From: Botryllus schlosseri | Lineage: Eukaryota | Direction: 5' to 3' | Length of the DNA: 64,000 nucleotides | Assembly: GCA_051294905.1 (NCBI GenBank) | Contig: CM119383.1 | Span: 18,538,001 to 18,602,000 of the forward strand | Shown: piece by piece, positions 7,953 through 58,531 of the stretch | Layout: the number at the start of each line of letters is the position of its first letter | How positions within the stretch are numbered: the first letter of the stretch is position 1 | Position numbers and translations under genes: made by a program | Notes under the pieces: generated by a model | Seen by the model: only the letters and a program-made list of their open reading frames with translations | Database searches by the model: none | What the model was told of the DNA's origin: nothing

Positions 7953-8612
7953 GTCACGTGAATTGATTTGATTGTATCATTAGAATGAATGTTCTGACAT
8001 CGCAACTTCGATGGGTAGCCTACAAGACAGACTATGTACGTTAAACAGCTTGCATATTAAGAAATTTTTTCTCCACTTTTCTATAGTATCCCATTCACCA
8101 AATAACTGTTTGAAGCTGGATCATAATGTTATTCCCACCATAGTGGACCCAAAACCACAATCACACAGCGGATACGGAGATTAGATAATTGGGTTTCGCG
8201 ACGTTAGTGGAACAGTAGACGGCCATAATATACACAAGAGTCATACAATCTGCCATGGCCGTAAGTTTCGTACCCAAAACCCCCAATTGGGGGAAGCTCG
8301 CAGGGGCCCAAAACAATTTAGTTGGTCGTTTTTTATGGGGAGATATATTGAATTGAAAATGATTGTCGCGCATCGCTCGATTTCATGTCCCTAGCGGTTA
8401 AGTTTCAAATAGTAACAGAAGAATGCGGATGTTTTAGATTAATAGGTATATCGGCGCCGGAGACTATCACGCATTGAACAGGACTATGACTCGAGGAAAA
8501 GAGGTGGGCATCAGAACATTTTCAAGCCGTAAAATGGGCCACGGCCAAAGAAAGGCTGGGAACCCCTGGGCTAAGCCTATGTCTACTGAGGTACAAAATA
8601 ATGCATGCTTAC

Positions 8613-36959: not shown

Positions 36960-37300
36960 ACGTATTAGGGTTAGGAGTGGTAGATATCAGTGTTGGTGGT
37001 GGGTTGAGGTTAGGGTATCCCAAGATTAGGGCTGTGGGTGAGGGGATATTGGGGTTGAACGTGAAGTAGGGTTACGGGTGACAGATATAAGGATTAGGGT
37101 GCGGGAATCGATACTCCCAACCCTAATTTTCGGATACCCGTACCCTAATACCACGCCACCCTATTTTGGGATACCCTTATTCACCTACTACCCTAATATC
37201 CCGCACCCAGAACCCTAATCTTTCGATAACCTGACTACAACCCTTACCCGCAGCCCTATTATCCCAACCCACGTGACCCTAATATCTCGCATCCATAACA
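36960..37300. repeat. Degenerate TTAGGG/CCCTAA-rich fold-back repeat
   Basis: Left arm rich in TTAGGG/TAGGGT and right arm rich in ACCCTA/CCCTAA, centred on GGGAATCGATACTCCC (about 37100-37120). Confidence 0.7.
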
Positions 37301-38496
37301 CCAATCCCAACGCGAAAAAAAATATTTATTTGACCGTTTATACATTTTGACATGTTCATGGGAAACTGGCATTGCTGTCACGGTGAACACTGGTTGGTTG
37401 TTGATTGTAAAACTAAGAAGCGCAAATTATATTTTGCTGTATGCTTGCCAGGTCTCAATAACAATGTACTGTAATTGAAATTGTAATTAGGCAAACTTTT
37501 TATCAAATTACAATTACACAAAATTAAAATGCTTCAATTGCAATTATAATTGCATGAAACATGTAATAAAATACATTCAGCTCAATTACAAATTACAATT
37601 GATCCAACTCCAATACTCATGACTGAAAAACCACGTTAACTGGTACCGGACAGCATTCGCACCTTCCTGCGAACGGAATTTGATGATCCCGAAACCGTTG
37701 ATACATATATATTACATCGTTATACAAACTCGAAAACACATGAAAGTATCTGCTATACCACAAATCCTATGTCGATGCATCTTTGCCTTTCATACTCCAT
37801 AGTTGTCGAACGCAGTTTTCACTTGCGATATAGAGGTTCGAGGCCTGGTATCACATGGGACGGAATTAGCAACAGTGTCAATTGTACCGTTTGGAAGCAG
37901 ATTCATACAAAAAGAGTATGAACTGCATAATGTCAGAAGGCTTTTCAATTGATATCCATATTGAGGTAGCTATTCATCGCCGAGAACGTGTAATGCATGC
38001 ATACTGTACAGGCAATTATATTTGCTACATATATATTCGTGTCATTCAAAATGATAGATCCATACCGATAATATTCATTCTTTTCAACACTGCGATGGAT
38101 CTTATCAAAATTAAGACATCAAGATGAGTTTTCAATTGTTCATCGCAAAGGCCGATGTGAGAGGTCACTATCGTATTTGCTTCAGATCTTGAAAGAAAAG
38201 ACAGATTAATCAGATTATATCTTGTACTTGAAATCATTCACCGAAGCAGTTATTACTGGAGGTCTGGTGGTCGAGTGAAGTCAGCTAAGAGAAAGAGATA
38301 CGGTATTCTTTTTCGCCTGCACCATCGAGATGCTTTGACGACGGAGCACACCCATTTTTCTCCTCCATGCTATCCGTGATTGCCGATCGGGAACACATAT
38401 ACTATTCACCTGATTTCCCGGAACATGTGCAACACGTCCCATTTCATGTTTCCCCATGAAATAATCGATTTCTTTCATGTGTAACACTAACATGAA

Positions 38497-38512
38497 TCCC
38501 TTTTTTTCTTTT
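38497..38512 (-). promoter_or_regulatory. Candidate polypurine tract (plus-strand primer)
   Basis: Minus strand AAAAGAAAAAAAGGGA lies about 155 nt after the pol stop and is followed by TTCA-TGTTAGTG. Confidence 0.55.
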
Positions 38513-38668: not shown

Positions 38669-41600
38669 TCAATCCCCCATTTGCAATAGTTTCCCCGGAA
38701 TTGGCCCTTCACAAAGCACAACATCGGGATTAGGAGACTGAAGAAGTTCGAGACCCTCAGCCTGCAGGTCCACCGCATTCATGCTGATGACAGTTTTCCG
38801 GCCTCGCGTCTTTGTCGTTTTCGTTTTACTAAGGTGGACGAATTTCCGCTTCATCCTTTCGATCCCTTCCTTCAGTAGGGCTTTTGCGTTTGATTCGGTC
38901 GTCACATGATACAGTATTCCGTCACCTCTATACTCTTTATACGGGGGAGGTGACCCTTTTGTATGACCATGTGCGGCGGCCAAACCACGATGGACAGCTA
39001 CGGCTCTGTCGCACCTTTCCATGACAGACTTGACATCCGTGATACTTATTCTCTTCCCCAATTTCTGCGTTAATATTTCGGAGATACTTTCCCAAGGGTG
39101 GTACCCGTCAACCGACTGGTTGCAATGTTCATGACGACAATGAAACATCAACATTCGCTGTATCCTCTCCTCTAGCTGCCCTTTCAAAGGATGCGGGAGT
39201 TCCTTTTTTCTTGGTATCGTGGCCCAAACATGCGGATCGTCATCCCCCGCGGCCATTTCCATCCAATAAGATCGGGACAACCCATCTGACGTAAATACTT
39301 GTAACGTACTTAAATGGATTACCTCCTTTATTTGGAATCCGGAAAGATGATTGAGCCACCTTTGAATTAGAGGTTTTGGGCTCGGGTTTTTAGCTGTATC
39401 CGCCATTCTTTTGAGGAGCCCAAACACGCCCGTGTTATCAGTAATTATAGTAAAGGGTAAGGCGCGCAACATCGACTGCCACTTTTCCACCGAATCTTTT
39501 AGGGCTTTCAGTTCTTTTGTGCACGGATCATAAGCTCTCGCAGCTGGAGTTACCCACTTCTGACTATAGTAGGCGATCGGGTACACATTTTTGAAAGGGG
39601 GTTTACCTCCAATTTCCGTCTGAAAAATTATGGAGCCAAACCCTACATCTGAAGCATCGGTTTCCACAAAAATAGGAAGTACTGGATCCAAATGATATAA
39701 TACACGGGTACTGTCGAGGGCGGCTTGCGCAACCTTGTAGTCACGCAGCAATTCTTCGTTCCATAGCACTGGCGTCATTCTTCCCTGAGTTGCCGGAACT
39801 TTCCCCGTTAGCGCATCAAATTTGGCTAGCTTCAGGCTTAACTCAGGGATATGCTCAGAGATGTAGCGGAGAGCCCCAATCCATCCCCGCAATTCATATA
39901 TGTTCCGGGGTGGCGAGAGTTCTCGGAGGGCCCTTATCCTTTCGGGTTGTACTTCTATTTCTTTGCCCGTCAGTGTCGCACCCAGTAAATTTACCTTCCG
40001 CTTTCCGATATAGCATTTATTGATGCTGACCGTCAATTTCATTTTTGCCAGTTGCTCAAAAACCAGTCGTAGGAGCAGTAAATGATCGTCTATCGTCTTT
40101 GTACTCAGGAAAATATCGTCTATGTAGGCCTCCATAGGCGTCGCATTCTCCTCATCCGACCGGTCATTTTGCTTCATGTGTTTGCGATACTTCTCCGTGA
40201 CGGGTTTCACCAAGCATTCTTGCATGTTAGAGGTCCAAAGGGCAACCGCTGTCTTTAGCCCCATAACCATCTTACGCCATCTTACGTGCATTCCTTTAAT
40301 GGCTATGCCTACATATTGTTTGGATCTTTCTGTGATATCCATGTGAAAGTAGGCTTTTTTCAAATCTAAGAGGGAAAGCACTCCTCTACCTTGGGCGAGT
40401 TGCTTTACATCCGGTACTAAGGGCGGAGGTACTTCTATTGACTTAATGGCCGCATTAAGGGGCTGGAGGTTTTGTACCACCCTCCATGCTTGCTTCCATC
40501 CGCCTTCCTGTTTTTGCCTCTCATTCATTTTTTGTGGAACAACAAAAATAGCTAGTTTCCACTCGGCGAACCCTTGCTCAATTATTCCCAAATCCAAGAA
40601 GTTGTCTACTGCCTCTTTTAAGGCCTTCGCCTGGCCCTCCCCCTTCAGATTATAAGGACCAGAAACGAAGGGTTTGGTGGAGGGGTCCTTGAGTTCGATA
40701 TCACACTTATACTTCATGGCTTGAGGAGCTCGCAAGTGGCCACGCAGATCTTCTAGTTCCCTAGCGAAAGGTTCATAGACGCTTTTCCAGATTTCGTCGG
40801 CGATCAAGGTATTTTCTGGCGTAGTCAAGTCAGGGGGCTTATACGGCAATTTCGCTAGTTCGACTGATTGTGTGCACAGTAGCTCAAGTTCAGTTTTCAC
40901 CTCGGGGTTGGTGCCCTCTTGTAGTACGTACGTGGTTACCGGACTGTTCATCCTTTTGTTTGGCTTATGCGGTAATCTGAGTTCTGGTGTTGGCGGAGAG
41001 AGAGCGAGGTCCTTTTCCGTCAGCGGGACTTCCCAACCTATTCGTGTTAACCTCTGATCTCGGCGCGTGCCCACGCCTAACGTCACGCCGCCGAAATTTT
41101 GATCCGACGGGGGCCCTTGTTCTGGAGAGACTTGCATCCTAAAATCCCCAGACTCCTCTTTAGTCACTTCTGGGCTATTATCCAGAAAGTGAGTAGTAGC
41201 TGCTTTGGAATTAATATTGAGCGAAGCAGGCGTAACGGCGGCTGCCGTGAGGTCATTCCACATCGGCGCCTCACGTTCATCTGCACACACAGTTTCGCCT
41301 ACATCCTCGTGGTCTCCGTGATTACTTTGACCACAGTTCGCGTCAGCGGGGCTTCCACGCTCGGCACGAAATCGAGTGGTGTCAGCAGGCCTTCCTTGCT
41401 CGGCACCTAAAGAGTCTCTTTCATTTATTGTAACGCCAGCGGTATTCACCGTCCCAACGTTTGCGTCAGTGGCCCTTGCCACCTCGACGCTCTTTGCTAC
41501 ATCATTGGAGTATTTCTCAATTGCTTGCACTCCATTTGCGTCAGCGGGACTTCCTCGCTCGGCGCGATGTCGGTGGGTGTCAGCAGGCCTTCCGTGCTCG

Positions 41601-42391
41601 GCACCTAAAGAGTCTCTTTTTTTTGTTTTAACGTCAGTGGGTTTTACCGACTCAACGTTTGCGTCAGCGGCCCTTGCCGTCTCGACGCTCCCTTGTTCTG
41701 CAGCTTTCACCAACCCATCCTTGGTCACAGCTTTGCAAGGACTGTTCCCAATTCTGGTTCCATTTCTTTCGTCGCATAATTTCATACTATGTACTGTTGC
41801 CAATGACAATTCTTCATTAGCAGTGGATGGAGTTTTAAATTCAGTGTCTATACTTGGTAACTGTTGTACTTTGTCAATCCATTTCAACCCCACTATATTA
41901 AGAGGAACTCCTTTGCCAGTTGCAAATGGAACTTGCAACCCGTCAAGAGGTACTATTACCAGAGAGTCGACTCGGGACGAGCCTCCTATTCCGCGCAATT
42001 TCATATCAAGGGGCTGTCGTTCAGCCCAGCTTCTCGGATATTTATGTTTTACTACGCTTTTCATAATCAAATTGGGGATACTGCCAGTATCGGCTAGGAA
42101 TTTAGTGTCTGTGTTTGTATCCACTAGGTATAAAAGTTGTCCACCGAATAATTCCATGAAATCCGGCTGTAGGGGGTTGTCCGGTGAATCAAGGAATGTA
42201 AATAAAGGTAACGAGGCATTATGTACAGTTTTAACGTGTTGGGGTAATATTGTCTCTGGGAGCTGATTTACCGGATCAATCAGCGCCCCCAACCGTTTTT
42301 TGATAAGCGTAAGCCTTGTTCTAATTCCTCCTCGGTCCAGTAAGAGGCGGCGTATTGGCGCGGCTCTCGACCGTATGAAGGCGCAATCCAA
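38669..42391 (-). CDS. pol: Pol polyprotein: aspartic protease, repeat linker, RT, RNase H and Tpt1/KptA-like domain; probably made as Gag-Pol by -1 frameshift near 42295
   Basis: Protease LADTGS, GIGG flap and NIVGLKWI. RT LDLKKAY, MGLKTA and YIDD (40115-40126). RNase H ETDAS, KELKAL, TDN and DGLSR. No HHCC zinc finger or DDE core anywhere in the ORF. Confidence 0.95.
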   Translation of the reverse strand: MDCAFIRSRAAPIRRLLLDRGGIRTRLTLIKKRLGALIDPVNQLPETILPQHVKTVHNASLPLFTFLDSPDNPLQPDFMELFGGQLLYLVDTNTDTKFLADTGSIPNLIMKSVVKHKYPRSWAERQPLDMKLRGIGGSSRVDSLVIVPLDGLQVPFATGKGVPLNIVGLKWIDKVQQLPSIDTEFKTPSTANEELSLATVHSMKLCDERNGTRIGNSPCKAVTKDGLVKAAEQGSVETARAADANVESVKPTDVKTKKRDSLGAEHGRPADTHRHRAERGSPADANGVQAIEKYSNDVAKSVEVARATDANVGTVNTAGVTINERDSLGAEQGRPADTTRFRAERGSPADANCGQSNHGDHEDVGETVCADEREAPMWNDLTAAAVTPASLNINSKAATTHFLDNSPEVTKEESGDFRMQVSPEQGPPSDQNFGGVTLGVGTRRDQRLTRIGWEVPLTEKDLALSPPTPELRLPHKPNKRMNSPVTTYVLQEGTNPEVKTELELLCTQSVELAKLPYKPPDLTTPENTLIADEIWKSVYEPFARELEDLRGHLRAPQAMKYKCDIELKDPSTKPFVSGPYNLKGEGQAKALKEAVDNFLDLGIIEQGFAEWKLAIFVVPQKMNERQKQEGGWKQAWRVVQNLQPLNAAIKSIEVPPPLVPDVKQLAQGRGVLSLLDLKKAYFHMDITERSKQYVGIAIKGMHVRWRKMVMGLKTAVALWTSNMQECLVKPVTEKYRKHMKQNDRSDEENATPMEAYIDDIFLSTKTIDDHLLLLRLVFEQLAKMKLTVSINKCYIGKRKVNLLGATLTGKEIEVQPERIRALRELSPPRNIYELRGWIGALRYISEHIPELSLKLAKFDALTGKVPATQGRMTPVLWNEELLRDYKVAQAALDSTRVLYHLDPVLPIFVETDASDVGFGSIIFQTEIGGKPPFKNVYPIAYYSQKWVTPAARAYDPCTKELKALKDSVEKWQSMLRALPFTIITDNTGVFGLLKRMADTAKNPSPKPLIQRWLNHLSGFQIKEVIHLSTLQVFTSDGLSRSYWMEMAAGDDDPHVWATIPRKKELPHPLKGQLEERIQRMLMFHCRHEHCNQSVDGYHPWESISEILTQKLGKRISITDVKSVMERCDRAVAVHRGLAAAHGHTKGSPPPYKEYRGDGILYHVTTESNAKALLKEGIERMKRKFVHLSKTKTTKTRGRKTVISMNAVDLQAEGLELLQSPNPDVVLCEGPIPGKLLQMGD
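38675..39165 (-). other. Tpt1/KptA (RNA 2'-phosphotransferase)-like domain at the Pol C-terminus
   Basis: Family motifs appear in order: CRH (LRH), DGYHPW (DGWV), AAAHGHT (RANQGHS), LYHVT (LYHGT), GIERMKRKFVHLS (GL..M.R..VHLS), ISMNAVDLQAEGLELLQSPNPDVVLCEGPIP (L.ID......G..F..S.NGV.L...IP). Recognised by eye. Confidence 0.85.
39270..39690 (-). other. Ty3/Gypsy-type RNase H domain
   Basis: PIFVETDASDVGFGSIIFQ...YPIAYYSQKW...Y...KELKAL...FTIITDN...RW...DGLSR, with the acidic catalytic residues present. Confidence 0.92.
39960..40680 (-). other. Reverse transcriptase domain
   Basis: PY...LDLGIIE...WKLAIFVVPQK...WRVVQNLQPLN...LDLKKAYFH...MGLKTA...YIDDIFL...KC...LLG. Confidence 0.95.
41340..41690 (-). 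repeat. In-frame tandem duplication in the PR-RT linker (153-bp copies, 198-bp period)
   Basis: 41340-41492 matches 41538-41690. The peptide SVExARAxDANV...RDSLGAExGRPADT...RAERGSPADAN occurs twice. Confidence 0.92.
41870..42130 (-). other. Retropepsin-type aspartic protease domain
   Basis: FLADTGSIPNLI (DTGS at 42080-42091), LRGIGG flap and NIVGLKWI closing motif. Confidence 0.88.
42262..42301 (-). promoter_or_regulatory. -1 ribosomal frameshift signal
   Basis: Slippery heptamer A AAA AAC (42301-42295) in the Gag frame, 6-nt spacer, then hairpin GGGCGCTGATT-GATCCGGTA-AATCAGCTCCC (10 of 11 pairs). Pol is in the -1 frame relative to Gag. Confidence 0.8.
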
Positions 42392-45213
42392 TTTACTTGA
42401 CCGTCATTTAGAATTGGATTCGCGGGTGGCCCCCTGGGACCCCATTGGCCCCTATCGTGCCAGTGGGTTCTATCTCTGTTTTTAGGTCTACTATCATAGT
42501 AGGCCTCACATAGATTCGTTCTTTCTGCCAACGGGGGAGAGCCATGGGATATGAGATACCGATCAAGGTCTGAAATCGTCAATAATCCATGGCTAGTAAG
42601 GAACGGACGCCAGTTGCGTTCAGCGGACTCCTTAAGGCGCGGTGGCACCGGTCGGACCCTCTTACGGATTATCCACCCCAATTCGCTATCTCTAGAAAGT
42701 ACCTCATTGTTTAGCCAAAGGACAAACTTGGCAATGCAATTACGGGATTGGTGTCCGGGAGCCTTGCAATAATAACATACCGAAAGAGCCTGGCCCTGCG
42801 ACGGATTCAAATACAAGCCTAAGGGGGCAAAGATATTAGCATTTCCAAGGAAATTGTACCTCTCACCTTGGCTATCCGCGATGTGACGAGCCTCCTGACT
42901 GTTGGACGGAGTGATTTGCGAGTTATCCGGCCCAACTCCAGAATCTTGTGTTCCTTCCACTCGCGGGCTTACTTGGCTCGAAGTTCCTGGTTGTTGACTG
43001 GATTGTGCTGGTCCTGAAATAGGTCCGAGCCGGAAATGGGGCTCGGCAGAACCGCCTTGTACATTCTGAGGTCGTTCCAGTCGTTTTCTAGTCGTTTGTA
43101 CTCGCCTGCTAGGTCCGCTACCACTTGCGACGTTAATCAGGGGCCGGTTTAATCTTGTGTTGCGAATAGGATTCCGGCGCGGTTGTGGAACCTGCCCCGT
43201 ATTCACAAGCGGTCGCAAGGGGACCATTCTAGGAGGTGGAGGAGGCGTTGCGTCGAATTCTGGAGGAGGATGTGATGATGGGGAGTTAGGCTGTGGAGAG
43301 ACTCCCCGTTGTCCATCTACGTTAGAGTGGGTTGGATAACTGTGTACCACAGGCCCGGCGGGTTGTACATTGTAGATATGTACGGGTGGCATAGGTGACT
43401 CGTTCTGTTTCGTCCGTCTAGCTCTCGGAACCGTCGGGTTCGATTCCCGGTCATCTTGGAACTCCGAGTTCCAGAACAGTTGAAGTTCTTCCGCGACTTT
43501 ACGCCAGGTGTTTTCTTCCCACCCCCGAATAATCAACCTGAGTGCTTCCGGCAGCTGCTGTCTCAAATTGCGGAAGAGGCGCAGTCCGTCCGGATTATCC
43601 AGAACTAGATCGTCCATGTCTATTTCTAGTTGTTTCAGGGCGCTGTTTAGTAGAGGAAGGGGTTCATCTTCCCAATGATAATTTCTTCGGAAATCGTTGA
43701 TAATTCTTTCATTGTTCACAATTCCTTGCGGGTTGGAAAGTGATAGCGACCTCATAACGGATTCCCAGCTGGCGTTTCCCGAGTTTGTGTTGAAGAAGTT
43801 TCCAAGTTGGTCAGCTTGCTCGTAACGCCCAGCATTCTTCAATTTCTTCTGCATTGCATTCATCAATATTATATCGGCATCAGTGTTACCCTCCCCGTGG
43901 TGAATTCGTCTCATCGTGTTCTCCATCCATTTAAGGAGAGGCATGTCCCCCGGATCCATCATTAACTGTATCATTTCCTTCTCGGATTGAAATCTAGCAG
44001 GTGTAGTTAGCGTGGGGTTTACTATTACCTCCATCTGTCGTGACCGCGGATGACTTGGGCGACCATCCTCACTGTCATCTGGAGTAGATGCGAAACGCGG
44101 CCTACCAGGATATTCCGAGCCATTCGGCTGATAGAAAGCATCGTAATACCCAGGTCCACGTAGGATTTCTCCGGAAGCGCCGCTACCTCCATGGAGAGGT
44201 TTCTGAGTAGCTTCCCGGAGGGTGTCTCGGGTGGATTCCATTTGTCGTTCTAGATTTCGCAGTCGAGACGTCGTCGCCCTTTCAGAATCTTCTGACGGAG
44301 CCTCAGAGTCTCCTTGATCCTCCCTTTTCCCATAGAAAGTGACGTGTTTGGCGTCATTCGATGAGTATCTTGCCCGACTACTACGTGGCTCTACATCATC
44401 CAACTTGTTGCTGCCCCGCTGCTGATTCTTTGCATCTCGGGGTCCAGACACCAGTTCTCGGAATGTGGGGAGGTGTTCGCTGCCCAATTCGGAGTCCGTC
44501 TCACTTTCCATTCTCAATGGTTCACCTGCTGTTACCCCCGTAGGTGTCCAATATGTCATGGGCGTGTTAGCAGCACCTTTGGCCTTCGTCGCCGGATGTA
44601 TGTTCTCTCTTGTCTTGAAGTTCGGAGCCAACAGAGAACGGGCAACCGGTGTCGGTCGAGACGGGGCTCCAGTCTTCACGTCTGGGTGCGTAGGGTAGAC
44701 TGCAGTTACTGTATGACAATCCAACCCCTTTTTCACGGTGAAGGTGGGCATAGGCTGACACTCCCTAACCACCTGGGTAGCCGGAGGATCATAGGCCGGA
44801 GGAGGCGCTGAGGGTACGACGGCCAGGGCGGGAGGAGGATGCGGTTTCTCTCCTACCGCCTGCATATGGGCTTTACCCAGCTCGAACTCAGTCTGCAAGA
44901 TCTCATTTAATACGTCAGTGGAAACTTTTCCACTAACCTTGGAAGTGGCGTCGCATACCGCCTTCAGATCGGCTTGAGCACGGCGGACTTCCTTCTTAGC
45001 CTTTTCAAGACCCTTAACGGCCTCAGGCAAGGTCGTTTTGACTTCTTTTAGGACTCTTGTTTGATCGGCCACATCTTTAGCAAGTTTCCGCTCTTGTTCT
45101 CGCACATCCTCGTGGCGTTTTTGGGTTGATTTAAGCAGTCTGATGCCCTGCTGTAGTTCTGTCGACGCTTCCGTTGATTTTTTCTTTTTGAACAGCTTCA
45201 TGATTCTGCGCAT
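42280..45213 (-). CDS. gag: Gag polyprotein (basic N-terminus, coiled coil, late domains, capsid-like helical region, CCHC knuckle)
   Basis: 977-aa open ORF. CYYCKAPGHQSRNC (42736-42777), PSAPPPAY (44791-44814) and a helical CA-like region at about 43470-43980. ATG in good context (GCCATG). Confidence 0.92.
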   Translation of the reverse strand: MRRIMKLFKKKKSTEASTELQQGIRLLKSTQKRHEDVREQERKLAKDVADQTRVLKEVKTTLPEAVKGLEKAKKEVRRAQADLKAVCDATSKVSGKVSTDVLNEILQTEFELGKAHMQAVGEKPHPPPALAVVPSAPPPAYDPPATQVVRECQPMPTFTVKKGLDCHTVTAVYPTHPDVKTGAPSRPTPVARSLLAPNFKTRENIHPATKAKGAANTPMTYWTPTGVTAGEPLRMESETDSELGSEHLPTFRELVSGPRDAKNQQRGSNKLDDVEPRSSRARYSSNDAKHVTFYGKREDQGDSEAPSEDSERATTSRLRNLERQMESTRDTLREATQKPLHGGSGASGEILRGPGYYDAFYQPNGSEYPGRPRFASTPDDSEDGRPSHPRSRQMEVIVNPTLTTPARFQSEKEMIQLMMDPGDMPLLKWMENTMRRIHHGEGNTDADIILMNAMQKKLKNAGRYEQADQLGNFFNTNSGNASWESVMRSLSLSNPQGIVNNERIINDFRRNYHWEDEPLPLLNSALKQLEIDMDDLVLDNPDGLRLFRNLRQQLPEALRLIIRGWEENTWRKVAEELQLFWNSEFQDDRESNPTVPRARRTKQNESPMPPVHIYNVQPAGPVVHSYPTHSNVDGQRGVSPQPNSPSSHPPPEFDATPPPPPRMVPLRPLVNTGQVPQPRRNPIRNTRLNRPLINVASGSGPSRRVQTTRKRLERPQNVQGGSAEPHFRLGPISGPAQSSQQPGTSSQVSPRVEGTQDSGVGPDNSQITPSNSQEARHIADSQGERYNFLGNANIFAPLGLYLNPSQGQALSVCYYCKAPGHQSRNCIAKFVLWLNNEVLSRDSELGWIIRKRVRPVPPRLKESAERNWRPFLTSHGLLTISDLDRYLISHGSPPLAERTNLCEAYYDSRPKNRDRTHWHDRGQWGPRGPPANPILNDGQVNWIAPSYGREPRQYAASYWTEEELEQGLRLSKNGWGR

Positions 45214-45234: not shown

Positions 45235-45603
45235 TTATAGGCTCGTAGTTGAGTTGTCGACAGCCTGATTTCCGCTGGAAACGGTCGGGTCGTCCAAAAT
45301 AGATCGCTGTGTGGATGCGATCGAAGAGTTGTGGACGTTAATTTCAGACTCTAGGACTTTAGAGAACGAGTCTTCGGTGGCGATAAATCGACGTCCTTCA
45401 GATGCGTTTTGTGAGCCAGTCAGAACAGGGAAAGCTGTTGTAAGTCCGTTGTTAGGTCTTCCGTTTCCACTTGGAACTGTAGTTGGAGAAACCCCCGGTA
45501 CTAAATGTAGATATATTGATGACAACGTGACGAACAAGGATATTACAGACGCAATCAGGGCCACGACCAATACCGTTTTAACGATGGTCGTCTTTGAACA
45601 CAT
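45235..45603 (-). CDS. ORF1: small (122 aa) putative membrane-anchored glycoprotein upstream of gag
   Basis: ATG 33 nt after the PBS. N-terminal hydrophobic stretch VLVVALIASVISLFVTLSSIYLHLV, then an S/T-rich tail with sequons NAS, NSS and NST. Stop lies 21 nt before the gag ATG. Confidence 0.7.
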   Translation of the reverse strand: MCSKTTIVKTVLVVALIASVISLFVTLSSIYLHLVPGVSPTTVPSGNGRPNNGLTTAFPVLTGSQNASEGRRFIATEDSFSKVLESEINVHNSSIASTQRSILDDPTVSSGNQAVDNSTTSL

Positions 45604-45635: not shown

Positions 45636-45653
45636 ATCCCAGTGGTGCCTCCA
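45636..45653 (-). promoter_or_regulatory. tRNA primer-binding site (U73 tRNA, Gln-like)
   Basis: TGGAGGCACCACTGGGAT is the complement of ATCCCAGTGGTGCCT-CCA, which fits tRNA geometry (C61, 5-bp T-stem, 7-bp acceptor, U73, CCA). Confidence 0.8.
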
Positions 45654-46036
45654 GTACGTTTAGAGTGCAGCTCCAATAACGCTTGTTACTGCGAGAGTCT
45701 ACACTTGGTTCGATTTTACTTCACAGTGTTGGTTTTCCTTATCTGTGTTGATGTTGTGACCTTGTAGCATCCACAAATGGTGATCGAAGCAGTTGTAAGG
45801 GTAGCAGCAGCTAGATCCAATCAGGCAATGACCTCCAGGTCCAGAACTTAAAACTACACTGGTATAACTAGTAAGCTAAACCTTAATACAACCAAATACT
45901 CCAATTATAACCATGCAAAGAGGAATGAGGTTTCTATGGGTAAAACCTGATAAAATTGGTAAACATGCTTCAATTATATTACAAGTTTTATCTAAACCTA
46001 TTCATCAACTTGCACGATTAATAAACATTTTCAATA

Positions 46037-46146: not shown

Positions 46147-47043
46147 ATTCATTCATGAAATATTGTGTCATTACACAACACTCAATTACAATAGTATTTT
46201 GATCACAATCTACTATATCTCTGGGTTCGATTGTACTGGTGTTTTAAGCTTTTTATTCATTCGTATGTACCGTGTCTCACAGACCATAGATCTGATTTAC
46301 CACGAATCCTAAACTTCTATCCCGTTAGGGTGAAGGGTCCCGACACTAACATACGGCGTGGTCGGTTATAACGCCTTACTGTACGAGACGCTACAACATA
46401 GATCATTATAAACACTCATTGTAACAGGTTTGACTTTGTCGAGAACAGTGTGACGTTAGTGTAGGTAGGGGTATTTATTTTAGTAACTTAGGACACTGAA
46501 CAACGTGTCAAGGACCAGTAATTTCCTGATTTAATGTCGTTTACACATACACCCTATTTATCCCTACTGGACCCAGCTAATTGCATATATGGTAGTTAGT
46601 CACAAGTCTCACTTAGTCAAACCCTGCTATCGTCATGCACTATTAATAATAGTTTACATCAATACGGTTAACACAAAACAAACAAATGTATACTTAATCA
46701 TGTATCACTCGATTAAACGGCGACCCAAATATGTGTGTGAACAACAATACACATACCAGTACATAACGCAATGATTCAATACGTAGTAATATGACCTCAC
46801 CCCAGTCAACTACAAATGCAATTTTGCAGCGACAACTTACCATTCACATAATAAATATCCATTAACTCTAAACTATGTTCAGGGCATGAAAATGTTAGCG
46901 CCATTTAAAGCAACCTGATAGTAACTATCAAGAACATAGTGACTATAGTATTTGAACATAATAAAGCGAATTAGCTTCACTGCACAGTACTATACTTTGA
47001 TATCAGTCCACTAGACAGAAATACGTTTGTCTTGCCTGCACCG

Positions 47044-48082
47044 TCAAGCTCCATACACTTTGATCTTTTGCGATATTTTCCCATTGTAGAATATGCAGCG
47101 CTCAGCATCGGGCGAACATTCTTGACACAGGCCCAGATGTCCACAGGGGATCAGGGTAACTTCACTCCTATTATTCTTGCATTGTTTGCAAAGTATGGTT
47201 TCTTGTATAACCATCAGATTCTCAGCAATTTCTTCAACATATGCTATTTCTAATATTGATGGCGTCCCCATTCTGTTTCTAGCATAAACAGAGTTGCCCA
47301 GTCTACTCTTTGACTGTTGCGCAGTTTGTGTATTTGAATCGACTGGCACTATATCGAGTAGTATCAAAGGGTCTTTTACGACATCGTTCACAGTGAAATG
47401 AATATTTCATCGTCTGCTGGTGGCTCTTTTCTGTGTGACTTCTGCTAAATCTCATCTTGTCCAACTGCATCCTCTCAGCATCTTCCTCTGACAATCTGGT
47501 TCGAGCGACGCGTATTTGCGTTCCAGTTCGGCGATTGCAAGGTGAAATATAGGTGCCGTTTTGTCCGGGAGAACCGCGATATCGTGGAGTGGTGATTCCA
47601 TCTTCTTGTATAACTCGTTGTCCTCTCGGTACATTAGTGCTTGACGGAGCCGGCTTTCGACAAATTCGTGCGGAATGAATTAATATGTCCGTCATCGCTT
47701 TATACGATAGCTTAACTACACGGGTGTGTAGAATATCTTGATATCGTATTTGATCTGTCTTATCATTTCGAAAATGAGAATGACACTTGTACTTCATGAC
47801 GCAATTTATGCCTACGTCTATAGCACAAAATTTAACTCGGTAAAATGACATTGTCCCAAATCTTATACAGATATCGATATAACAAACGGTTGACACACCC
47901 GCTTCGTAAAACGCATGTGCCGACAGGGCGGACCTATGACTAACGTGGTTATTGATCATCGACACATCTGTTTCGGAAAACAAATGTGTGGATGGGGCCA
48001 ATTTATTTGCCATTTTCAAGTTCATGTTATTTGAAGTACACTTTCCTATGTGTTCTAGGGTCTTTTCTAACCTAATTACCAT
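47044..48082 (-). pseudogene. Intronless gene remnant ending in an IAP/MDM2-type C3HC4 RING finger
   Basis: C-terminus CKQCKNNRSEVTLIPCGHLGLCQECSPDAERCIFYNGKISQKIKVY, with the last Cys replaced by Tyr. The frame extends upstream through two TGA stops to about 47680, with a probable frameshift to ORF 47303-48082. Confidence 0.7.
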
Positions 48083-48198
48083 ACTATTTTATTCCGATTA
48101 TATATACATCACTATTACTACACATATAGGCTATCATATATATCTATTTATTCAGGTTATATATTATTTCTTCATTAAACATAGTTTAATTAAACCAG

Positions 48199-48363
48199 AT
48201 AGGGATGCCAATTCATTGAGTGTATCCTAAGACTTTATCAGTCAGCCCTATCGATTTAGTTTTCAAGGCTTCTCTGAAAAATCTATCATTTCCAGTCCTG
48301 TGCCTATTAATTTAGTCTTCCAGGCTTCTCTGGATAATCTAGCATTTCCAGTCCTGTGCCTAT
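48199..48363. repeat. Module with two tandem 56-bp cores; related copy at 50299-50400
   Basis: Core CCTATyrATTTAGTyTTCmAGGCTTCTCTGrAwAATCTAkCATTTCCAGTCCTGTG at 48247-48302 and 48303-48358, preceded by AGGGATGCCAA. Confidence 0.85.
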
Positions 48364-50298
48364 CACTCGTGGGTAAGTTATACTTTTGTTTCCAATAGCG
48401 GAGTCTTAAATTAGCCTCGCCGGCCAATATGCCCCCTAAGTACTCTGATAACGTGTGTGTCGTCATTTAGAACTTTAATGATTTCAGTCCTTGATCTAGG
48501 AACTTTTCTTTTTGGGGTATCCAGACTGAGTGCTCTGTTTCAGGTTCTTCGCAGCGTAATCCTAGACACATGTTACTACTCCTAACTACTTAGTAATTTT
48601 TATATATTAACCTTAAATTTTACAAAAATAGTTTTCAAATCACATGTTCCATGAAACAGTACTTGTACGTCAGAAGCGGGATCCGCTTTCAGGCTCCAAA
48701 CCCATGTCTAAATCCGACCTCGACTTCGTGCTTGGATTCAACCTTGTATTTAATCTATTCACTTGATAGACAGCATGTCGTACCCCCCACAAGGGCATTT
48801 TTTATTTTGTTATTTTATATTCAGGTTTTTTTTTTTTAATCATTTTAAAGTTTTTTTTTTCTTTTCATTTTTAAACACGACCTTTACTCATTTTATTAAT
48901 TTTTTCTTTGATTTTCGTCTATTTATTTTTTATACTCTTATTTACACGTGACAAATCCACTTTGCCACAAAGTTTTATTTATATTTTATCATTTTTTTTG
49001 TGGGTAAGAATATATATATATTGTAACACTTATTATCTATATACATTGACAATACATCTGTCCCTCCTTCCTCCCTATCGTGGTTGATAATGCACCGGCG
49101 ACTCACTTAACCATTGATATCGAAAAAGCGAGATTTCAGCATAATCTACTTATATACACGACCACCACATTACCAGACCCACAGCGATCTCATGTAGGCT
49201 ACTATACTTCAATCCAAAATTGTTCACCGGAATGCTTCAATGTCAACGGCCCTCCTCCTCAAGGGTAAGAGTCAACCGGGATGGAATCTACTTCCAAAGT
49301 GTAGGGAGGTGCATTAGGGTGGGAACAACCTGAGACTTACCCAAACTGTACCCATATATACATAATTACAATTACACTCTACTTCAGGCTGAGTGCTGAC
49401 CCTAACGGTAAGAATACATTTGAAGAGGGATTCTATAGATATTCATGCAAATGTAATAATAAAAGATATATGTATATATACATTTTTAAAACATTAATAT
49501 AAATTATGGGATCGCGCCTGGAGTTGGTTCCGCATTCCGACACCAGGCGCTACCCCCGAGCAGCGCAAACGGTAATACCGATTCTATGCTTAGATAAGAA
49601 AATCAATGCAATAATATGAAATGCTTCATTAACATACCAATATAGCAAATAATATGAACAAGTATTTGAATAAGTCAGAACAAGAAAAAACATGAAAGAA
49701 AGAAAATGTAAATAATATTAGTAAAACTTTTAATAAGTAATAAGGGGTGATTGTTCACGGGATAGGTGGTCGTTAGAGCTGTTACTCCACTATTGCACGT
49801 TATTCTACTTCTTTCGACGATATTCAAGAACGGGATTGTTGTCTGCCACAGGCATACCGAGTTTACCAACTTTTGCGATACTTAAGTGAAATTTTACCAC
49901 GATGCACGCCAAGTGTCGCATTTACAACAACCTCTATAGGACTAATACATTACATAGCCGGTCACAAAACAATTGATAACGAAACAAAACATGTTCTATT
50001 TTATGTAATATCCGTATTACATATACAGTGGAAAACTGCTCAGCCTTACGTCCAAGTAGATGGAAACAACTTCGCTCCTAGGATGTTAGCTAGGAGTCTC
50101 TTGACGTATTAAATTGCGAATCGATAATATTTTCTTCTGGATAATAGCGAGTGCTCGGAATATATGAATGCAGCAATCATTAATAATCCGTGACAAAATA
50201 AATACAGGAATACAGTTTCTCTAATTTAAGCTATTCTCAAATTTCTACTGCAACCGACTCATTCATCTGTTTCTTCTTAGTTTAGTTTAGACTAGAAT

Positions 50299-50400
50299 AG
50301 GGATGCCAAATAATTAAGTTTGTCCTAAGTCCCCATTAGCCGACCCTATTAATTTAGTTTTCCAGGCTTCTCTGAAAATCTAGCATTTTTCAGTCCTGTT
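50299..50400. repeat. Second copy of the AGGGATGCCAA + 56-bp core module
   Basis: Colinear with 48199-48302; lies 46 nt after the stop of ORF 50446-51405. Confidence 0.85.
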
Positions 50401-50445
50401 ATCGGGCAACCAGTTTTAGGAGACTACACAATAATTAGCCAAGTG

Positions 50446-51405
50446 TCATTCAATTTCTACTTTGGTTGATTTCGATTCCTTTATACGAAACCAGCGGTTA
50501 TATATACGTCTTAACCCGGCTTCTACATCGGGGATGAGATCATCCCTCCAGGAGTCCAATTTTAGCAACTCCTCAAAAACAATATTTCCAAGGGCAATAT
50601 CATAATCGATCCTACCACGCCCTTCCAATAGGTATTCGTCCTGGACCTGCGCCAGCTTGCCAGGTGTATTCAAATTGGGTGCCAGGCAACACCATATCAT
50701 AATGGGATAGATAGTGAAAACCAAGCATTTTGCTATATTAATTCCCATGATAGTCTTTTCTGCCTCATAGGAATATCGGAACTTCCCCCCACCCCACTTT
50801 ACTTTGAGAGCTTTACCCGTCATTTCTAACATGTCATTCACAACCTTTGGACATTCGTTATGTAAGTCGTCCCCAACGGTCAAACAGCAGTACAAATGAA
50901 TCATTTCTCTACATATCTCTCTCACGTGATATATATTATTAAAAAATACAAGAGGTGATATTCCAATTCTTCCATTATTGTTTTTTGAGTACCAAGTATT
51001 TGCTGTCTCCCAACAGGGCATTAGTTCATCAAAAATTCCGTACCTCTCTTGGAACAAGTAAACTTGTTCCTGGAAAGCCAGCGCAATTTGCTCCGCCTCG
51101 TCATTCACCAGTTCAGTACTTCGTTCAGGATATTCCCGATTTTTGTCGTCGTTCTGGAGTGTACGTTCCCTTTTGCGTATTTGATAAATTTCACCACCGG
51201 CGCCGTCTCTCACAGCAGTCATTCTAAGATGCTTTATTTCAAGGATCCTTTTGAATGGAACCTTTTGTTGTATAGCAAGTACGATGTCGTCTTGGATAGT
51301 TCGTGGAGTAGTTTCGGCCTGAATCCCACACAACCTGTTCAGGCGCCACCTAATTGTACGAAAGACAAGTCCCTGTGCATTCTTAAAATTACTTAGTATA
51401 ACCAA
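50446..51405 (-). CDS. 319-aa orphan ORF (possibly viral; no recognisable domain)
   Basis: Long intronless open frame with ordinary protein composition. An in-frame ATG GAG TGA lies just upstream, suggesting a nonsense-damaged start. Confidence 0.55.
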   Translation of the reverse strand: MVILSNFKNAQGLVFRTIRWRLNRLCGIQAETTPRTIQDDIVLAIQQKVPFKRILEIKHLRMTAVRDGAGGEIYQIRKRERTLQNDDKNREYPERSTELVNDEAEQIALAFQEQVYLFQERYGIFDELMPCWETANTWYSKNNNGRIGISPLVFFNNIYHVREICREMIHLYCCLTVGDDLHNECPKVVNDMLEMTGKALKVKWGGGKFRYSYEAEKTIMGINIAKCLVFTIYPIMIWCCLAPNLNTPGKLAQVQDEYLLEGRGRIDYDIALGNIVFEELLKLDSWRDDLIPDVEAGLRRIYNRWFRIKESKSTKVEIE

Positions 51406-52253
51406 ACCAAATCACTCCATCCAATTGACTCGACTCGTGTCAAAGCTGCATCGGGGAGAGGCAATATGCGATTCACATTGTTTCCCATTATTACTTAGGG
51501 TAGTGACACGATGTCTGTGCAATTATACTTGGAGACAAACAAAGTACTGAATAAACATACCATTTCAAAAACGATTGTTCCATTGTTCACAAATTTTTAT
51601 TCTGATCTGTCCGTTAGTGCATGTTATACTTTATAGCATCACCGTTCGGTCGAGAGTCCTCGACAAGGTCACAATCTTATTGAGATATTCCGTGGTATTA
51701 ATTTCAGAGTTATAATGCTTTCCTACGATTGAATCCAGTTGATTGTCTATCTCACATAACTAGAATAAATTCGAATCTAGCAAAATTACCAATTCTAACC
51801 TTTAGATTAAACCTTCAAGGTAAAGTCATAGTGCACAGAGTATCAGTGGAGATAAACGGAGGGGTGGAATATCATATACAGCAAGTAAGGGGCTCTAAGC
51901 TTTCTTTAGGGTTATTGATGGTGAATTCCCCTCTCCAGCTAGTAAACCAACTACAATGTAGTGTATACTATGTATCGCCAATAGCTGTCTTTCTCTCCAT
52001 TATCTATGTAGGCCCACAAATACTAACACTCTCTCCCCCTCAAAAATATGGAGCCTGTCCTTCGCAGGCAACGTTTTTCCGCCATTAAACTGTTTTGCCC
52101 ATAAATTATACTAACCCTTTCGAATATGGTTAACGACTAACGAGGTAGTCTAATTAGTAATAGACTACAGCATGCTATTTCAGAATCTAGAGTGGAATAT
52201 GGTGACAACACCACACAAGATTCTCTGTTTAGTTATTTCATTATTCTTCGCAG

Positions 52254-55200
52254 AAAGAAACGGACCGAGATTCCATAGGGTTCAGAAAGGTAGCTGTTGA
52301 GTGGAAACTTTTTAACACCTTCTTCTCTTTTTTTAGCTGTCTGCTGCATTTTATAGAGTAGAGGCCGTCAACGTGCCTATTGGAATATGTTACCCCACCG
52401 AATAGTGACCGAGTTGGACTACGCCAGACTTCATGGTAGGCAAGTTATTGTTGAGTCGGCGACACTACCAATAACTCCGTCAAAAAAAAAATCCGACAGA
52501 ACCTTCAGGGGTCACTTCTAGGGTCCCTAGACTCAGTATTCACCCTAGTCCAACCGAATCTGCTTTGGTACAGGAGATATTAGATTTTTTACAAAATTTT
52601 TTGGAAAGATGACTCTACATTAGCACAACAAAAATGGTTATTTTTAGTCAACTTAAAAGCTTCAAACCTAGCCCCTACAGTGAAAACATGAGATTTTAGT
52701 CATAATAGCCTGTGGGTTGTCTTGAAAAAGTATAGCCAACCTGAGAAACCCAGGGTCATACTTGGAGACAGGACTTATCAAAACCAGTCTCACCTGTCCG
52801 ACCAAAATATGTGCTGGCTAGTACAAGCTACCATCCTATACTGGGTTAGACACTAAATCTGGATGCTGGCAATCCTTGAATACAACCCTTTTTTTGGTCT
52901 GATTATGTTGTTTCTTTAGAGATATCAACCCCAGCAAAGTCAATCCATGAAAATCTACTTGCTTGGAAAACAGGGATTCAGGTAAATAATAATCATCACG
53001 GTTTTTAGTTGGTTAACTATTTAAGCATCATCCCGTGGTTGATACCCGGTGAGTTTCATATTGGTTTGGTATACCATTCAAGCAATTCCTATTTGACGTC
53101 CCAATGATGTGGACATTATCACCCAGACATACATAGTTGCCTACTTCGATTCGTAATTACCTAGCAGTGTTCTTGCTTGAAGTTGCAAGGTGCATTTTTA
53201 AACTATTGCAAAGTGACATAGCATTATACAGCTTTAATTAATGAAAATATCCAAAAATTATAACCACCTTTCGCACAATAACAATGTAATTTACCTAGGT
53301 GATCTAGGATATAAACTACTCGGTCCAGTTGTTGTTGTGTAAGGGCTCAGACTGACAGGTGATATATTGTAGAGTTTCGTACCGTGGTTTTTATAATAAA
53401 ACCCGAATCTTGCCAGTTGCGATTTCGAAATAGGTGCGAATGTTGGCCCCCAAAGCCACCAGTATTCAAATGTTCGAATTGGAACACAAAGTATGTCACA
53501 TCATTCATCAGGCAACTGTTGCGCATTGCAAAGTTCCTCTCAACTGACACCAAGTCAACCGCCGAATGATAGGCTACCGCTTTTGGCTGCTGAAATATGT
53601 GTTCATTTATTGAATGCCACAGCCATTGCGCCTGTATAAACGGCTGCCAGCCACGTCTGAGACTGTTAGTGAAAGTTGTCCAATGTTATGACCGAAACCC
53701 CATGCCAATACTTCATCTATCTTTTCATGGAGGCCAGTTAATCACCCCTATTGTCATTGTAAATTAGGATAAGTGGAGTTTTCCATGATTAGTGGCATCA
53801 GTGAACTGGTGTTATACGTATATTGATATTCTTGTATGCATATATATATATATATATGCACATACATTCCACAACTCATGTAAGCCTTTCGTTCAGACGT
53901 TCACCTGGCCGCAGTACAGAACCCCTTGACGAAGGGTGAACAGGTGGCCCCCCTTTGACAACTAAGAGTCAGACTTGGAAGGAGACTACCGGAGTGTTTC
54001 ATCTATCCATCTACAATCCAGTGCCTTAAAAAAAAATCTTTTTGTACTCCTGGTAAGTTTGGAAATAGCTCTCCCTATGCTTGTACAAAACAATGCTTTT
54101 ACTTTTTAGGAAAGGCTAGTTGGGGCAGCTTATGATGATAGTGATGGCCTTCTGACTATACATACATCTCATGCCGAACCGAGGTAATCCTGTAACTCAA
54201 ACAAATCTTTATAACTGGTCACCCTTTTTGAATAGGTAGGGACATAACGGCAGCAAAATCATCACTAGTTGGCCTGCAATTACCGCCATACTAATAATGT
54301 TGTTCATCCAACAGTAAGCATATTGTCTTTTTCGCTTGTGACCTAACATTTGTAGATACAGTGAATCCCGCCTACTGCTCTTTCATCTACTGGCATATAG
54401 GCACAGAAAAAGGTTCAACACTTCCGGAAGTTTGAATTTCAGCGGCAGTCAAACATGGAGTAGACTTAATTTTCGAAACTTCATGCTAATTAGGTCATGG
54501 TTAGTGATGTTATTGACGGTACAAAATGTCTCTATAAGCTACTCCTTGTTCTGAATGCATTATCTAATGGTATAATGAAACCATGTTTGGAATTTGAGTC
54601 AGTTTCCATACTTGAAATATTAGAGCCCAGTACTGATTAGAAGCAATCAATCAATCCTGACTCAGTTTCAGCGTAAATTTAACCTGTCTCAGTACTTAAT
54701 CAATACTTAACGGAATATAACTACGTGACTTTGCAGGTTTTCAAAGGGACGGAATCGCCAAGTGGTTATACTGGACAAAGTTCACCAAGTGTGAGATATC
54801 AGTATAGATCGCTGTTGCAGAGATGTTGCCTGGATTGCGCAGAATCCTTATGATGTCTACTGGACTGGCAGAAAGGAATTCAGGTAAATTCAAACCTAAA
54901 AATTTCCAGTGGCTTAACTATTTGGTAGTGACCACTCTTGAGATTGAGAGCTGCGTCATTAGACTAATTCCAAAAAAAATTTAACAGAAAACGTTGCAGT
55001 TTCAATCGTTCAAGAAATTATCGATGGCTACCTTATACAACACTTGTGCGATTTTTAACTAAAATGACGTAATGCCATAGCTAATATTATGCCAACACTA
55101 TAACATCTATCCAGAAAGATTAGAAATTGCTTTGTTGTTGAATCTCCTTGGGTGTTATTTCCGAAATCAGTTCTAGTTTTATAGATCGTTACCATTGTGG

Positions 55201-57941: not shown

Positions 57942-58016
57942 GCCAGCAGTTCAACCGTAAGAGCATCACTGAATTCTCAACCAGGCCTGGCCAACCAGAA
58001 AATTTTCATCTTTTCA

Positions 58017-58531
58017 GATTAGGTTAGAATTAGAATTAGGGCATCGCAGTTTTTACCAGATTAGATCAAAATCAGAACTACCGAATTCGCAGAACTTGGA
58101 ATTTGAAATTAAATACAGTAAATACCAAGCTTGATTGATTTCAAACTACTGTGTATTCCCATGAGCATGAGATTGGTTAACGTCCGGACACCTAGCTGTG
58201 ATTGCTTTGCACTCACCTGTTCGCATGCCTTACTATTTTATTCCACACTAGCAGAAAACCCGAAACGGCTTCGGCGTTGTACTAACATATGGTTATTATT
58301 CACAATTACCACCCTGATCGCACGGACGACGTAACGTTAAAGTAATGCGGTAGCAGTTGGCAACAGATTTCCTTATGCAAGAGGGACATTCTTGTTGACT
58401 TGGCGCAAAAGTGCTGCAGGCAAAGCATTTTCAGCAAAATAATAAATTAGATCAGAATTAGATCACTTGCATTTTACTCTAATTCAGTGAAATTAGACCA
58501 CTAGAATTACCCAGTTATCCAAGTCTGTTCC
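58017..58531 (-). mobile_element. hAT derivative related to 24680-25200, inserted in the decayed block
   Basis: Reverse complement AGTGCAAAGCAATCACAGCTAGGTGTCCGGACGTTAACCAATCTCATGCTCATGGGAAT aligns with 24870-24930. The end CAGTTATCCAAGTCTG resembles 25185-25200. Confidence 0.6.

Follow-up and report, generated by a model that had tools for sequence, protein, structure and literature searches.

A giant retroelement of Botryllus schlosseri, located in a 64,000-nt stretch of its genome (GenBank assembly GCA_051294905.1, contig CM119383.1, positions 18,538,001 to 18,602,000; hereafter the window), encodes a Pol polyprotein whose C-terminal part is an intact member of the Tpt1/KptA family of 2'-phosphotransferases, which use nicotinamide adenine dinucleotide (NAD), with a complete Arg-His-Arg-Arg tetrad. 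The element carries neither integrase nor long terminal repeats (LTRs), and it probably follows a pararetrovirus-like cycle that passes through a circle and is integrated by a DNA transposase, with Tpt1 as an accessory enzyme of giant, enveloped, reverse-transcribing elements. Feature coordinates are collected in Table 1.

The identity of the domain is supported by several comparisons. The Pfam family PTS_2-RNA (PF01885; cut-off, 26 bits) matched Pol residues 1079-1233 with 33.3 bits, or 39 bits when the domain was scanned alone, and the top PDB sequence match was Runella Tpt1 (7kw8, E 2e-8), all nearest solved sequences being Tpt1/KptA proteins. Modelled with AlphaFold, the C-terminal 170 residues of Pol (pLDDT 89) adopt the two-lobe fold, a winged-helix RNA lobe and an ADP-ribosyltransferase (ART) NAD lobe, and resemble TkoKptA in Foldseek (E 6e-12, TM 0.83-0.84) and an archaeal KptA in a structure comparison (Z 19.4, root-mean-square deviation 2.1, 167 of 170 residues aligned). 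The initial annotation, made from the letters of the window alone, had named this domain Tpt1/KptA, and both the profile match and the fold match bear it out. Its R-H, H-V-T, M-K-R and H-L-S motifs are likewise present at the positions it gave. It had also held that the Arg residues of the K.RF and I-R-A motifs look altered, which is correct for I-R-A, whose lost Arg does not belong to the essential tetrad, and incorrect for K.RF. The active site is more complete than that annotation held, because the Arg of C-D-R-A-V (R1133) aligns with Arg64 of the Runella enzyme, a placement by profile and not by atom-level superposition. The essential residues of Runella Tpt1 are Arg16, His17, Arg64 and Arg119 (PMC6097658). 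The Lys two residues ahead of R1133 is lost in the domain, and this Lys was rated non-essential in Tpt1 (PMC6333775).

The same residues are retained across copies and lineages. The loci compared yielded 47 distinct open domains, of which 46, 47, 47 and 45 keep R1090, H1091, R1133 and R1186, respectively. Among proteins from outside this genome (13, of which the mis-cut P0106 and P0153 were dropped beforehand), 11/11 well-aligned sequences retain the third and fourth Arg, and nine of the ten that cover the site retain R-H. Between lineages whose Pols are about 35% identical, no alignment columns are better conserved than the four essential residues and H-x-T, and the ratio of nonsynonymous to synonymous substitution rates (dN/dS) is 0.11-0.51 in the 10/28 pairs without saturation. 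Judging from this conservation and from the model, the domain is very probably a catalytically active enzyme. It is quite improbable that the element follows the proposed cycle while Tpt1 serves as a non-catalytic RNA- or NAD-binding appendage of Pol; the identity of only about 21% to solved Tpt1, the lost Lys and one outside lineage with R-F in place of R-H (P0109) would suit such a role, whereas the conservation of the tetrad and H-x-T and the closed two-lobe fold recovered in the model would not.

The fusion is not peculiar to the window copy, as it occurs in many copies in the genome and in outside relatives. The domain gave 139 matches among 150 candidates scored in its own genome, ranging from 100% down to 33% identity, and many copies lie in Pol frames of 1067-1324 aa that are open in dozens of cases. 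A search with the reverse transcriptase (RT)-RNase H-Tpt1 region found three database proteins of the same layout at 36-46% identity, two of which represent clusters of 31 and 215 members; below these three, matches drop to 21-27% identity and mostly carry integrase. More relatives came from further searches, among them one of representative sequences that ran as a whole-Pol profile of 1008 positions because its alignment included three full-length proteins. Overall, the Tpt1-Pol fusion recurs in outside lineages at 35-46% Pol identity, and one outside locus (L154) has Gag, Pol and Tpt1. A homologue search with the Tpt1 part alone returned no relatives, which is a sensitivity limit, because the longer query found three. 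Scans of viral contigs returned no relative of the element (one caulimovirus was recovered), and a first metagenome scan was blank. The host also has its own Tpt1-like cluster of about ten pieces (G000:C3:19313502-19429401 and C14:5157418), an expansion that is unusual for a single-copy housekeeping gene; two of these pieces score 156-180 bits against Pfam and are not among the matches to the Pol domain, which is far removed from the host Tpt1-like genes.

For the RT, the top PDB match is 8r0s, of cauliflower mosaic virus, at 179 bits, with Ty3 at 172 bits, a near tie. A quick RT tree of 66 rows, assembled without retrovirus, copia, BEL, DIRS or Kuafu entries, places all 13 Pols that bear Tpt1 together in a single group (SH-aLRT 91). 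Their sister is a metagenome locus (L155:1928-10964) with Gag, a Pol that ends after RNase H, a 1338-aa glycoprotein and no repeats; it has neither integrase nor Tpt1, and its primer site is presumably of Met type. Next in the tree are integrase-bearing metagenome elements (L156, L158) with BIR and other extra open reading frames (ORFs) downstream. In a distant family (L074:909-9182, L109-L115; 39% Pol identity), a G-patch separates protease from RT in Pol, and there are a 233-aa ORF, a single glycoprotein and shared cargo; no transposase match was found in the two of its loci read at length.

The overall structure of the element is seen best outside the window, whose copy has no transposase, glycoprotein 1 or left end. 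A sister copy 96% identical to it is 33.9 kb long and starts with an IS1595/Merlin transposase (DDE_Tnp_IS1595, 54.3 bits; cut-off, 27) and two membrane-anchored glycoprotein-like ORFs. The full order is left end, Merlin transposase, two glycoproteins, cargo, a copy of the host spliced leader, tRNA primer site, a small membrane ORF, Gag, Pol (protease, RT, RNase H, Tpt1), purine tract and right end. The eight copies covered from one end to the other are 14.0-44.2 kb long, begin with GG, finish with CC, and have imperfect inverted ends that agree at 10-17 of 24 positions, with no direct similarity between the two ends. Seven of them are flanked by exact 8-bp target duplications and one by a duplication of 9 bp. 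In the largest family, 22/25 end pairs have an exact 8-bp duplication and another has 9 bp; in a cross-pair control, 30/900 end pairs match, true partners counted in. Ends were base-precise in 30/30 right and 30/30 left ends read. Self-comparison of the end-to-end copies and of the window revealed no LTRs, and no tandem copies or head-to-tail junctions were seen in the genome stretches read. Among 86 longer Tpt1 matches, 58 have a same-strand transposase, lying upstream at 13-81 kb in 51 and downstream of Pol at 183-204 nt in 7; two have only a distant unrelated neighbour and 26 have none. There are two arrangements with an identical circular gene order and the ends placed elsewhere, one of them with the transposase right after Pol.

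Integration is probably by this separate Merlin/IS1595 transposase acting on the inverted ends. The placement of Tpt1 in the integrase position by the initial annotation is accurate as a location, after RNase H, and does not carry over to function. A direct role of Tpt1 in integration, in place of integrase, is hardly credible: its position and the action of Tpt1 enzymes on DNA 5'-phosphate ends (PMC10275265, PMC8883491) would allow it, but the element has a DDE transposase, whose characteristic ends and duplications are seen, Tpt1 also occurs in the distant family, which has irregular boundaries and no transposase match, and Tpt1 is no replacement of integrase because the sister lineage L155 lacks both.

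In several families (e.g. L042:9300-9350) the reading frame of the transposase begins about 40 codons ahead of its first Met, at a site resembling a splice acceptor, which suggests cis- or trans-spliced expression. Glycoprotein 1 has a furin-like site, a hydrophobic peptide, a long helix and a membrane anchor, features that suggest a fusion protein; its homologue search found one relative at 65%, and its single-sequence fold model is unusable (pLDDT 39). The cargo includes an inhibitor of apoptosis (IAP; three BIR and a RING), a ubiquitin-conjugating enzyme and a leucine-rich-repeat (LRR) protein. A second IS1595-like ORF (L047:102-977, L059:7737-8672), 35-38% identical to the first, is found in the cargo of several families. 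Two internally deleted copies, of 14 kb (L021/L022 junction) and 23 kb (L029/L030), have kept both ends and a perfect duplication and have lost the leader copy; over Gag-Pol the 14-kb copy matches that of the window at 99.9% identity, and its deletion lies at a 9-nt microhomology. An inverted copy of the 17-kb family adjoins the left end of a 24.7-kb copy (L043-L044).

Evidence of reverse transcription comes from the middle of the element, where the primer site and the leader copy lie 11-33 kb inside the left end. The Thr primer site is identical in 9/19 stretches. Four distinct primer sites are found among the copies, matching genomic tRNA-like 3' ends with 17, 10, 44 and 1 matches against 0 for reversed controls; ARAGORN confirmation extends to the identity of the Thr primer only. 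Primer sites that differ, and yet each match a tRNA-like end, point to ongoing tRNA-primed copying. The leader copy lies 191-393 nt ahead of the primer site, one per element, and is exact across families whose flanks differ. It was identified in 17/19 stretches, being absent solely from the two internally deleted copies, and in 33/42 copies on five contigs, where 0.003 per 10 kb would be expected. This 24-nt motif is the host spliced leader, because reads start at its first base and then enter unlike sequences: in RNA run X23, 1058 reads do so start, and about 850 continue into unlike sequences, what precedes the leader in these reads being presumably the template-switch oligo. In three loci (L028, L060, L069) a part-duplicated leader tail directly follows the leader, resembling relict leaders of repeated cycles. 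In 4/5 copies the right end is preceded, at a distance of 87-123 nt, by a purine tract, and the candidate frameshift signal between Gag and Pol was detected in 8/9 copies scanned.

These features bear on whether the element could simply be a giant Merlin cut-and-paste transposon that spreads as DNA only, with the retrovirus-like module and Tpt1 as captured cargo of other or past role. Its ends, duplications and transposase are indeed those of Merlin (PMC8101967), no circle junction was seen among the RNA reads listed, and cut-and-paste needs no RT. Such an explanation is nevertheless unlikely, given that primer sites switch between families while each exactly matches a host tRNA-like end, that the leader copy stays invariant amid diverging flanks and is part-duplicated in some copies, that long Pol frames remain open in dozens of copies, and that the frameshift signal is conserved.

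Under the pararetrovirus-like cycle, genomic RNA would be transcribed across the joined ends of a circle, either excised or reverse-transcribed; the full genomic RNA would have to come from a circle because the sole primer site and the leader copy sit mid-element. Host trans-splicing would supply the leader as the RNA 5' end, and the DNA leader copy at the RNA 3' end would take the part of R, the repeat used when the first strand jumps. Reverse transcription primed by tRNA would then produce a new circle, which the transposase would cut at the joined ends for insertion of the element, and Tpt1 would be packaged with RT as part of Gag-Pol via the -1 frameshift. We infer the circle, the RNA across the joined ends, the leader as R, the insertion by transposase and the formation of particles from sequence. 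A more specific proposal, held tentatively though it is quite possible, is that these are undescribed enveloped animal pararetroviruses with a Tpt1-tipped Pol, replication through a DNA circle, the leader as R and, in this host, precise integration gained by capture of a Merlin transposase and its ends, in which Tpt1 would be the first NAD-using enzyme in an RT polyprotein and would heal or cap ends in the particle.

Reverse transcription might instead start from a linear integrated copy, with two RNAs (leader to right end and left end to leader) joined by RT template switching or by tandem read-through. This would account for the primer site and leader without an episome, family members are mosaic-looking in identity along their length, and the 14-kb copy has its deletion at a microhomology. 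It is rather improbable all the same, since the two ends share inverted similarity only and offer no homology for a jump, all ends read are base-precise, and no tandem copies were seen.

Several observations weigh against the circle-based cycle or against the part that Tpt1 plays in it. In the quick RT tree, the element and the one caulimovirus row, which sits on a long branch, do not come out together. No read or contig that joins the right end to the left end was among those listed from two RNA runs (3-6% of each), in a search whose reference contained the right end only and which had 454 more loose-end rows than were listed. Coverage of Gag and Pol was almost nil in the share read of the two RNA runs. 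Tpt1 is dispensable for integrase-free replication, because the sister L155 lacks it. Other observations would fit the cycle. In single-cell run X21, element-sense reads pile up immediately ahead of the leader copy, reaching a depth of 1193 at 46028, which may fit RNAs ending near the leader or may simply mark the one block alike enough for reads of other families. In the distant family, three copies have their starts at differing places within Pol, and leader, primer site and Gag follow downstream or have been rearranged; copies are also permuted and inverted, and a 13-kb foldback element interrupts them. Three further copies were read in 3.3-kb pieces only. Endogenous pararetroviruses likewise begin at differing internal points; these starts inside Pol may, on the other side, reflect later insertions, of which one was seen.

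Known Tpt1 reactions comprise the removal of internal and terminal 2'/3' phosphates and the ADP-ribose capping of 5'-phosphate ends (PMC10275265, PMC8883491). If the element's enzyme is active, the tentative first choice is that it strips 2'/3' phosphates off the primer tRNA or off viral RNA that has been damaged. ADP-ribose capping of 5'-phosphate RNA or DNA ends, for instance at gaps in the circle, is possible though on balance doubtful. The initial annotation had proposed protection of unintegrated cDNA ends, repair of primer tRNA or genomic RNA cut by host nucleases, or an NAD/RNA-binding module against host defence; of these possible functions, RNA healing or counter-defence gains some weight and is ranked first, with capping second, because unrelated viruses that do not reverse-transcribe carry Tpt1. 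Clearing of a 2' phosphate at the trans-splicing branch just upstream of R seems unlikely, and some other Tpt1 job equally so. A 2'-5' branch would be expected at that place after trans-splicing at the leader copy, and branches stall RT (PMC5399748). This remains the weaker idea, with Tpt1 useful only if trimming of the branch left a 2' phosphate. Debranching is not known to leave one, which speaks against it. A ribozyme-made Tpt1 substrate was also considered and is unsupported, as an Rfam scan of 36000-64000 found no ribozyme or other RNA and a single weak microRNA match.

Within the window, Pfam families in Pol follow the order RVT_1, RT_RNaseH, PTS_2-RNA, with no integrase family in the window Pol or in related Pols scanned. 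The zf-CCHC match in Gag (20.5 bits) is just below the Pfam cut-off, and the small ORF upstream of Gag has no Pfam match. The right boundary is sharp when copies are compared. Homology of the window copy extends 30.7 kb upstream, beyond the window, and the element continues 5 kb past the window before being cut off inside glycoprotein 2. Outside the element, a very abundant transcribed host repeat (38288-38346) lies just beyond the right end, a degenerate TTAGGG-like tract (36960-37290) about 1.1 kb beyond it, and a 624-aa host NACHT/NLR-like ORF (NACHT, NOD2_WH) at 8467-10341 on the minus strand.

Table 1. Features of the element in the window (positions are those of the 64,000-nt stretch)
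Feature	Position	Strand	Description
Right end	38390..38413	-	Imperfect terminal inverted repeat, terminus ..TTCC; boundary 38390
Polypurine tract	38497..38512	-	About 120 nt inside right end
Pol ORF	38669..42403	-	Open, 1244 aa: protease-like, RT, RNase H, Tpt1
Tpt1/KptA domain	38672..39181	-	C-terminal 170 aa of Pol; Pfam, PDB sequence match, AlphaFold model, motif positions
NAD-lobe H1190	38828-38836	-	In H-L-S
Predicted catalytic R1186	38846-38848	-	Arg in M-K-R
NAD-lobe H1166-x-T1168	38900-38908	-	H-V-T motif
Predicted catalytic R1133	39005-39007	-	Arg in C-D-R-A-V
Predicted catalytic R1090-H1091	39131-39136	-	R-H motif
RNase H ETDAS	39650-39664	-	
RT YIDD motif	40115-40126	-	
Repeat insert in Pol	41299-41690	-	
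Protease-like DTGS	42080-42091	-	Pol motif
Candidate -1 frameshift signal	42255..42301	-	A AAA AAC heptamer 42301-42295 and downstream hairpin
Gag ORF	42280..45213	-	Open; CCHC knuckle 42736-42777
Small ORF between primer site and Gag	45235..45603	-	One hydrophobic membrane-like segment
Primer-binding site	45636..45653	-	18 nt, exact complement of host tRNA-Thr(AGT) 3' end; internal to element
Host 24-nt spliced-leader DNA copy	45882..45905	-	Exact, one per element, 228 nt before primer site
AATAAA	46252..46257	-	Within block conserved across several families
Cargo region	46300..64000	-	Largely decayed
IAP/RING relic	47047-47511		Window cargo
PWWP-repair-factor-like relic	48299-48589		Window cargo
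Cargo ORF	50449-51294		

No description of a Tpt1-Pol fusion or of such an element was found in the literature covered; Repbase, subscription journals and the supplements of PMC11673190 and PMC9503650 lay outside that coverage and could list such elements. An integrase-free, LTR-free, transposase-integrated, circle-copying life cycle would be undescribed for animal retroelements. If the proposal is true, it adds a new replication strategy for reverse-transcribing viruses, in which copying passes through a circle, the DNA transposase is borrowed and the host spliced leader provides the repeat for strand transfer. It would also offer a natural, testable setting for the long-open role of Tpt1 where tRNA splicing does not depend on it (PMC10275265), and a transposase able to move units of 40 kb while keeping their ends precise would be of practical interest.

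Compared with known systems, the domain shares with Tpt1/KptA/TRPT1 phosphotransferases the whole two-lobe fold, the Arg-His-Arg-Arg tetrad and H-x-T (PF01885; PMC6097658, PMC6333775), and differs from them in its fusion to Pol, its low identity, a loop two residues shorter and the missing Lys before the third Arg. Virus-borne Tpt1 is known as viral KptA, in two cases within a replicase polyprotein, with a proposed role in RNA end clean-up (PMC9503650, PMC3230848). Tpt1 folds occur in a densovirus-type protein, sawfly gammabaculoviruses, giant viruses including Bodo saltans virus, a Beihai picorna-like virus and a Botrylloides leachii nidovirus, none of which reverse-transcribes; a count of 'retrotranspos' and 'reverse transcript' in the main text of PMC9503650 gave 0 for both.

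Among retroelements, Ty3/gypsy elements such as Burro and the errantiviruses have a similar Gag-Pol with gypsy-type RT and RNase H (PMC6431247, PMC13524379), and Burro also carries BIR and ubiquitin-related cargo (PMC6431247). However, Burro, errantiviruses and Kuafuorterviruses have LTRs and integrase, and the element has neither (PMC6431247, PMC13524379, PMC11673190); Kuafuorterviruses further have [ILV]ADD where the element has YIDD (PMC11673190). A tRNA primer site and a purine tract are shared with Ty3/gypsy and Retroviridae, but the element's primer site is internal and not beside a 5' LTR. DIRS-type elements make no target duplication, whereas the element has clear 8-bp duplications, and no DIRS-type tyrosine recombinase was found among the element ORFs scanned, which included part of the cargo ORFs only. 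With Merlin/IS1595 the element shares DDE_Tnp_IS1595, GG-starting ends, 8-9 bp duplications and imperfect inverted repeats (PMC8101967), and it departs from them in carrying gag, pol, glycoproteins and 10-30 kb of cargo, many copies with a second IS1595-like ORF. Teratorn offers a virus-like genome, a borrowed DNA-transposon enzyme, inverted ends, giant size and cargo genes, but it joins piggyBac to an alloherpesvirus with a DNA polymerase, where the element is reverse-transcribing and uses Merlin/IS1595 (PMC6431247). Caulimoviridae, which are plant pararetroviruses (PMC8256270), resemble it in a protease-RT-RNase H Pol without integrase, the absence of LTRs and one tRNA primer site, and would also do so in a terminally redundant RNA from a circle, if the element makes one. 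The element differs from them in its animal host, envelope-like glycoproteins, transposase, Tpt1, spliced leader and size of 17-44 kb, and no movement-protein Pfam match was found among the element ORFs scanned. The element is thus outside Ty3/gypsy, retroviruses, Kuafuorterviruses, DIRS and Caulimoviridae, while its ends are those expected of Merlin. By analogy, it would appear to work most like a pararetrovirus crossed with the borrowed-transposase trick of Teratorn.

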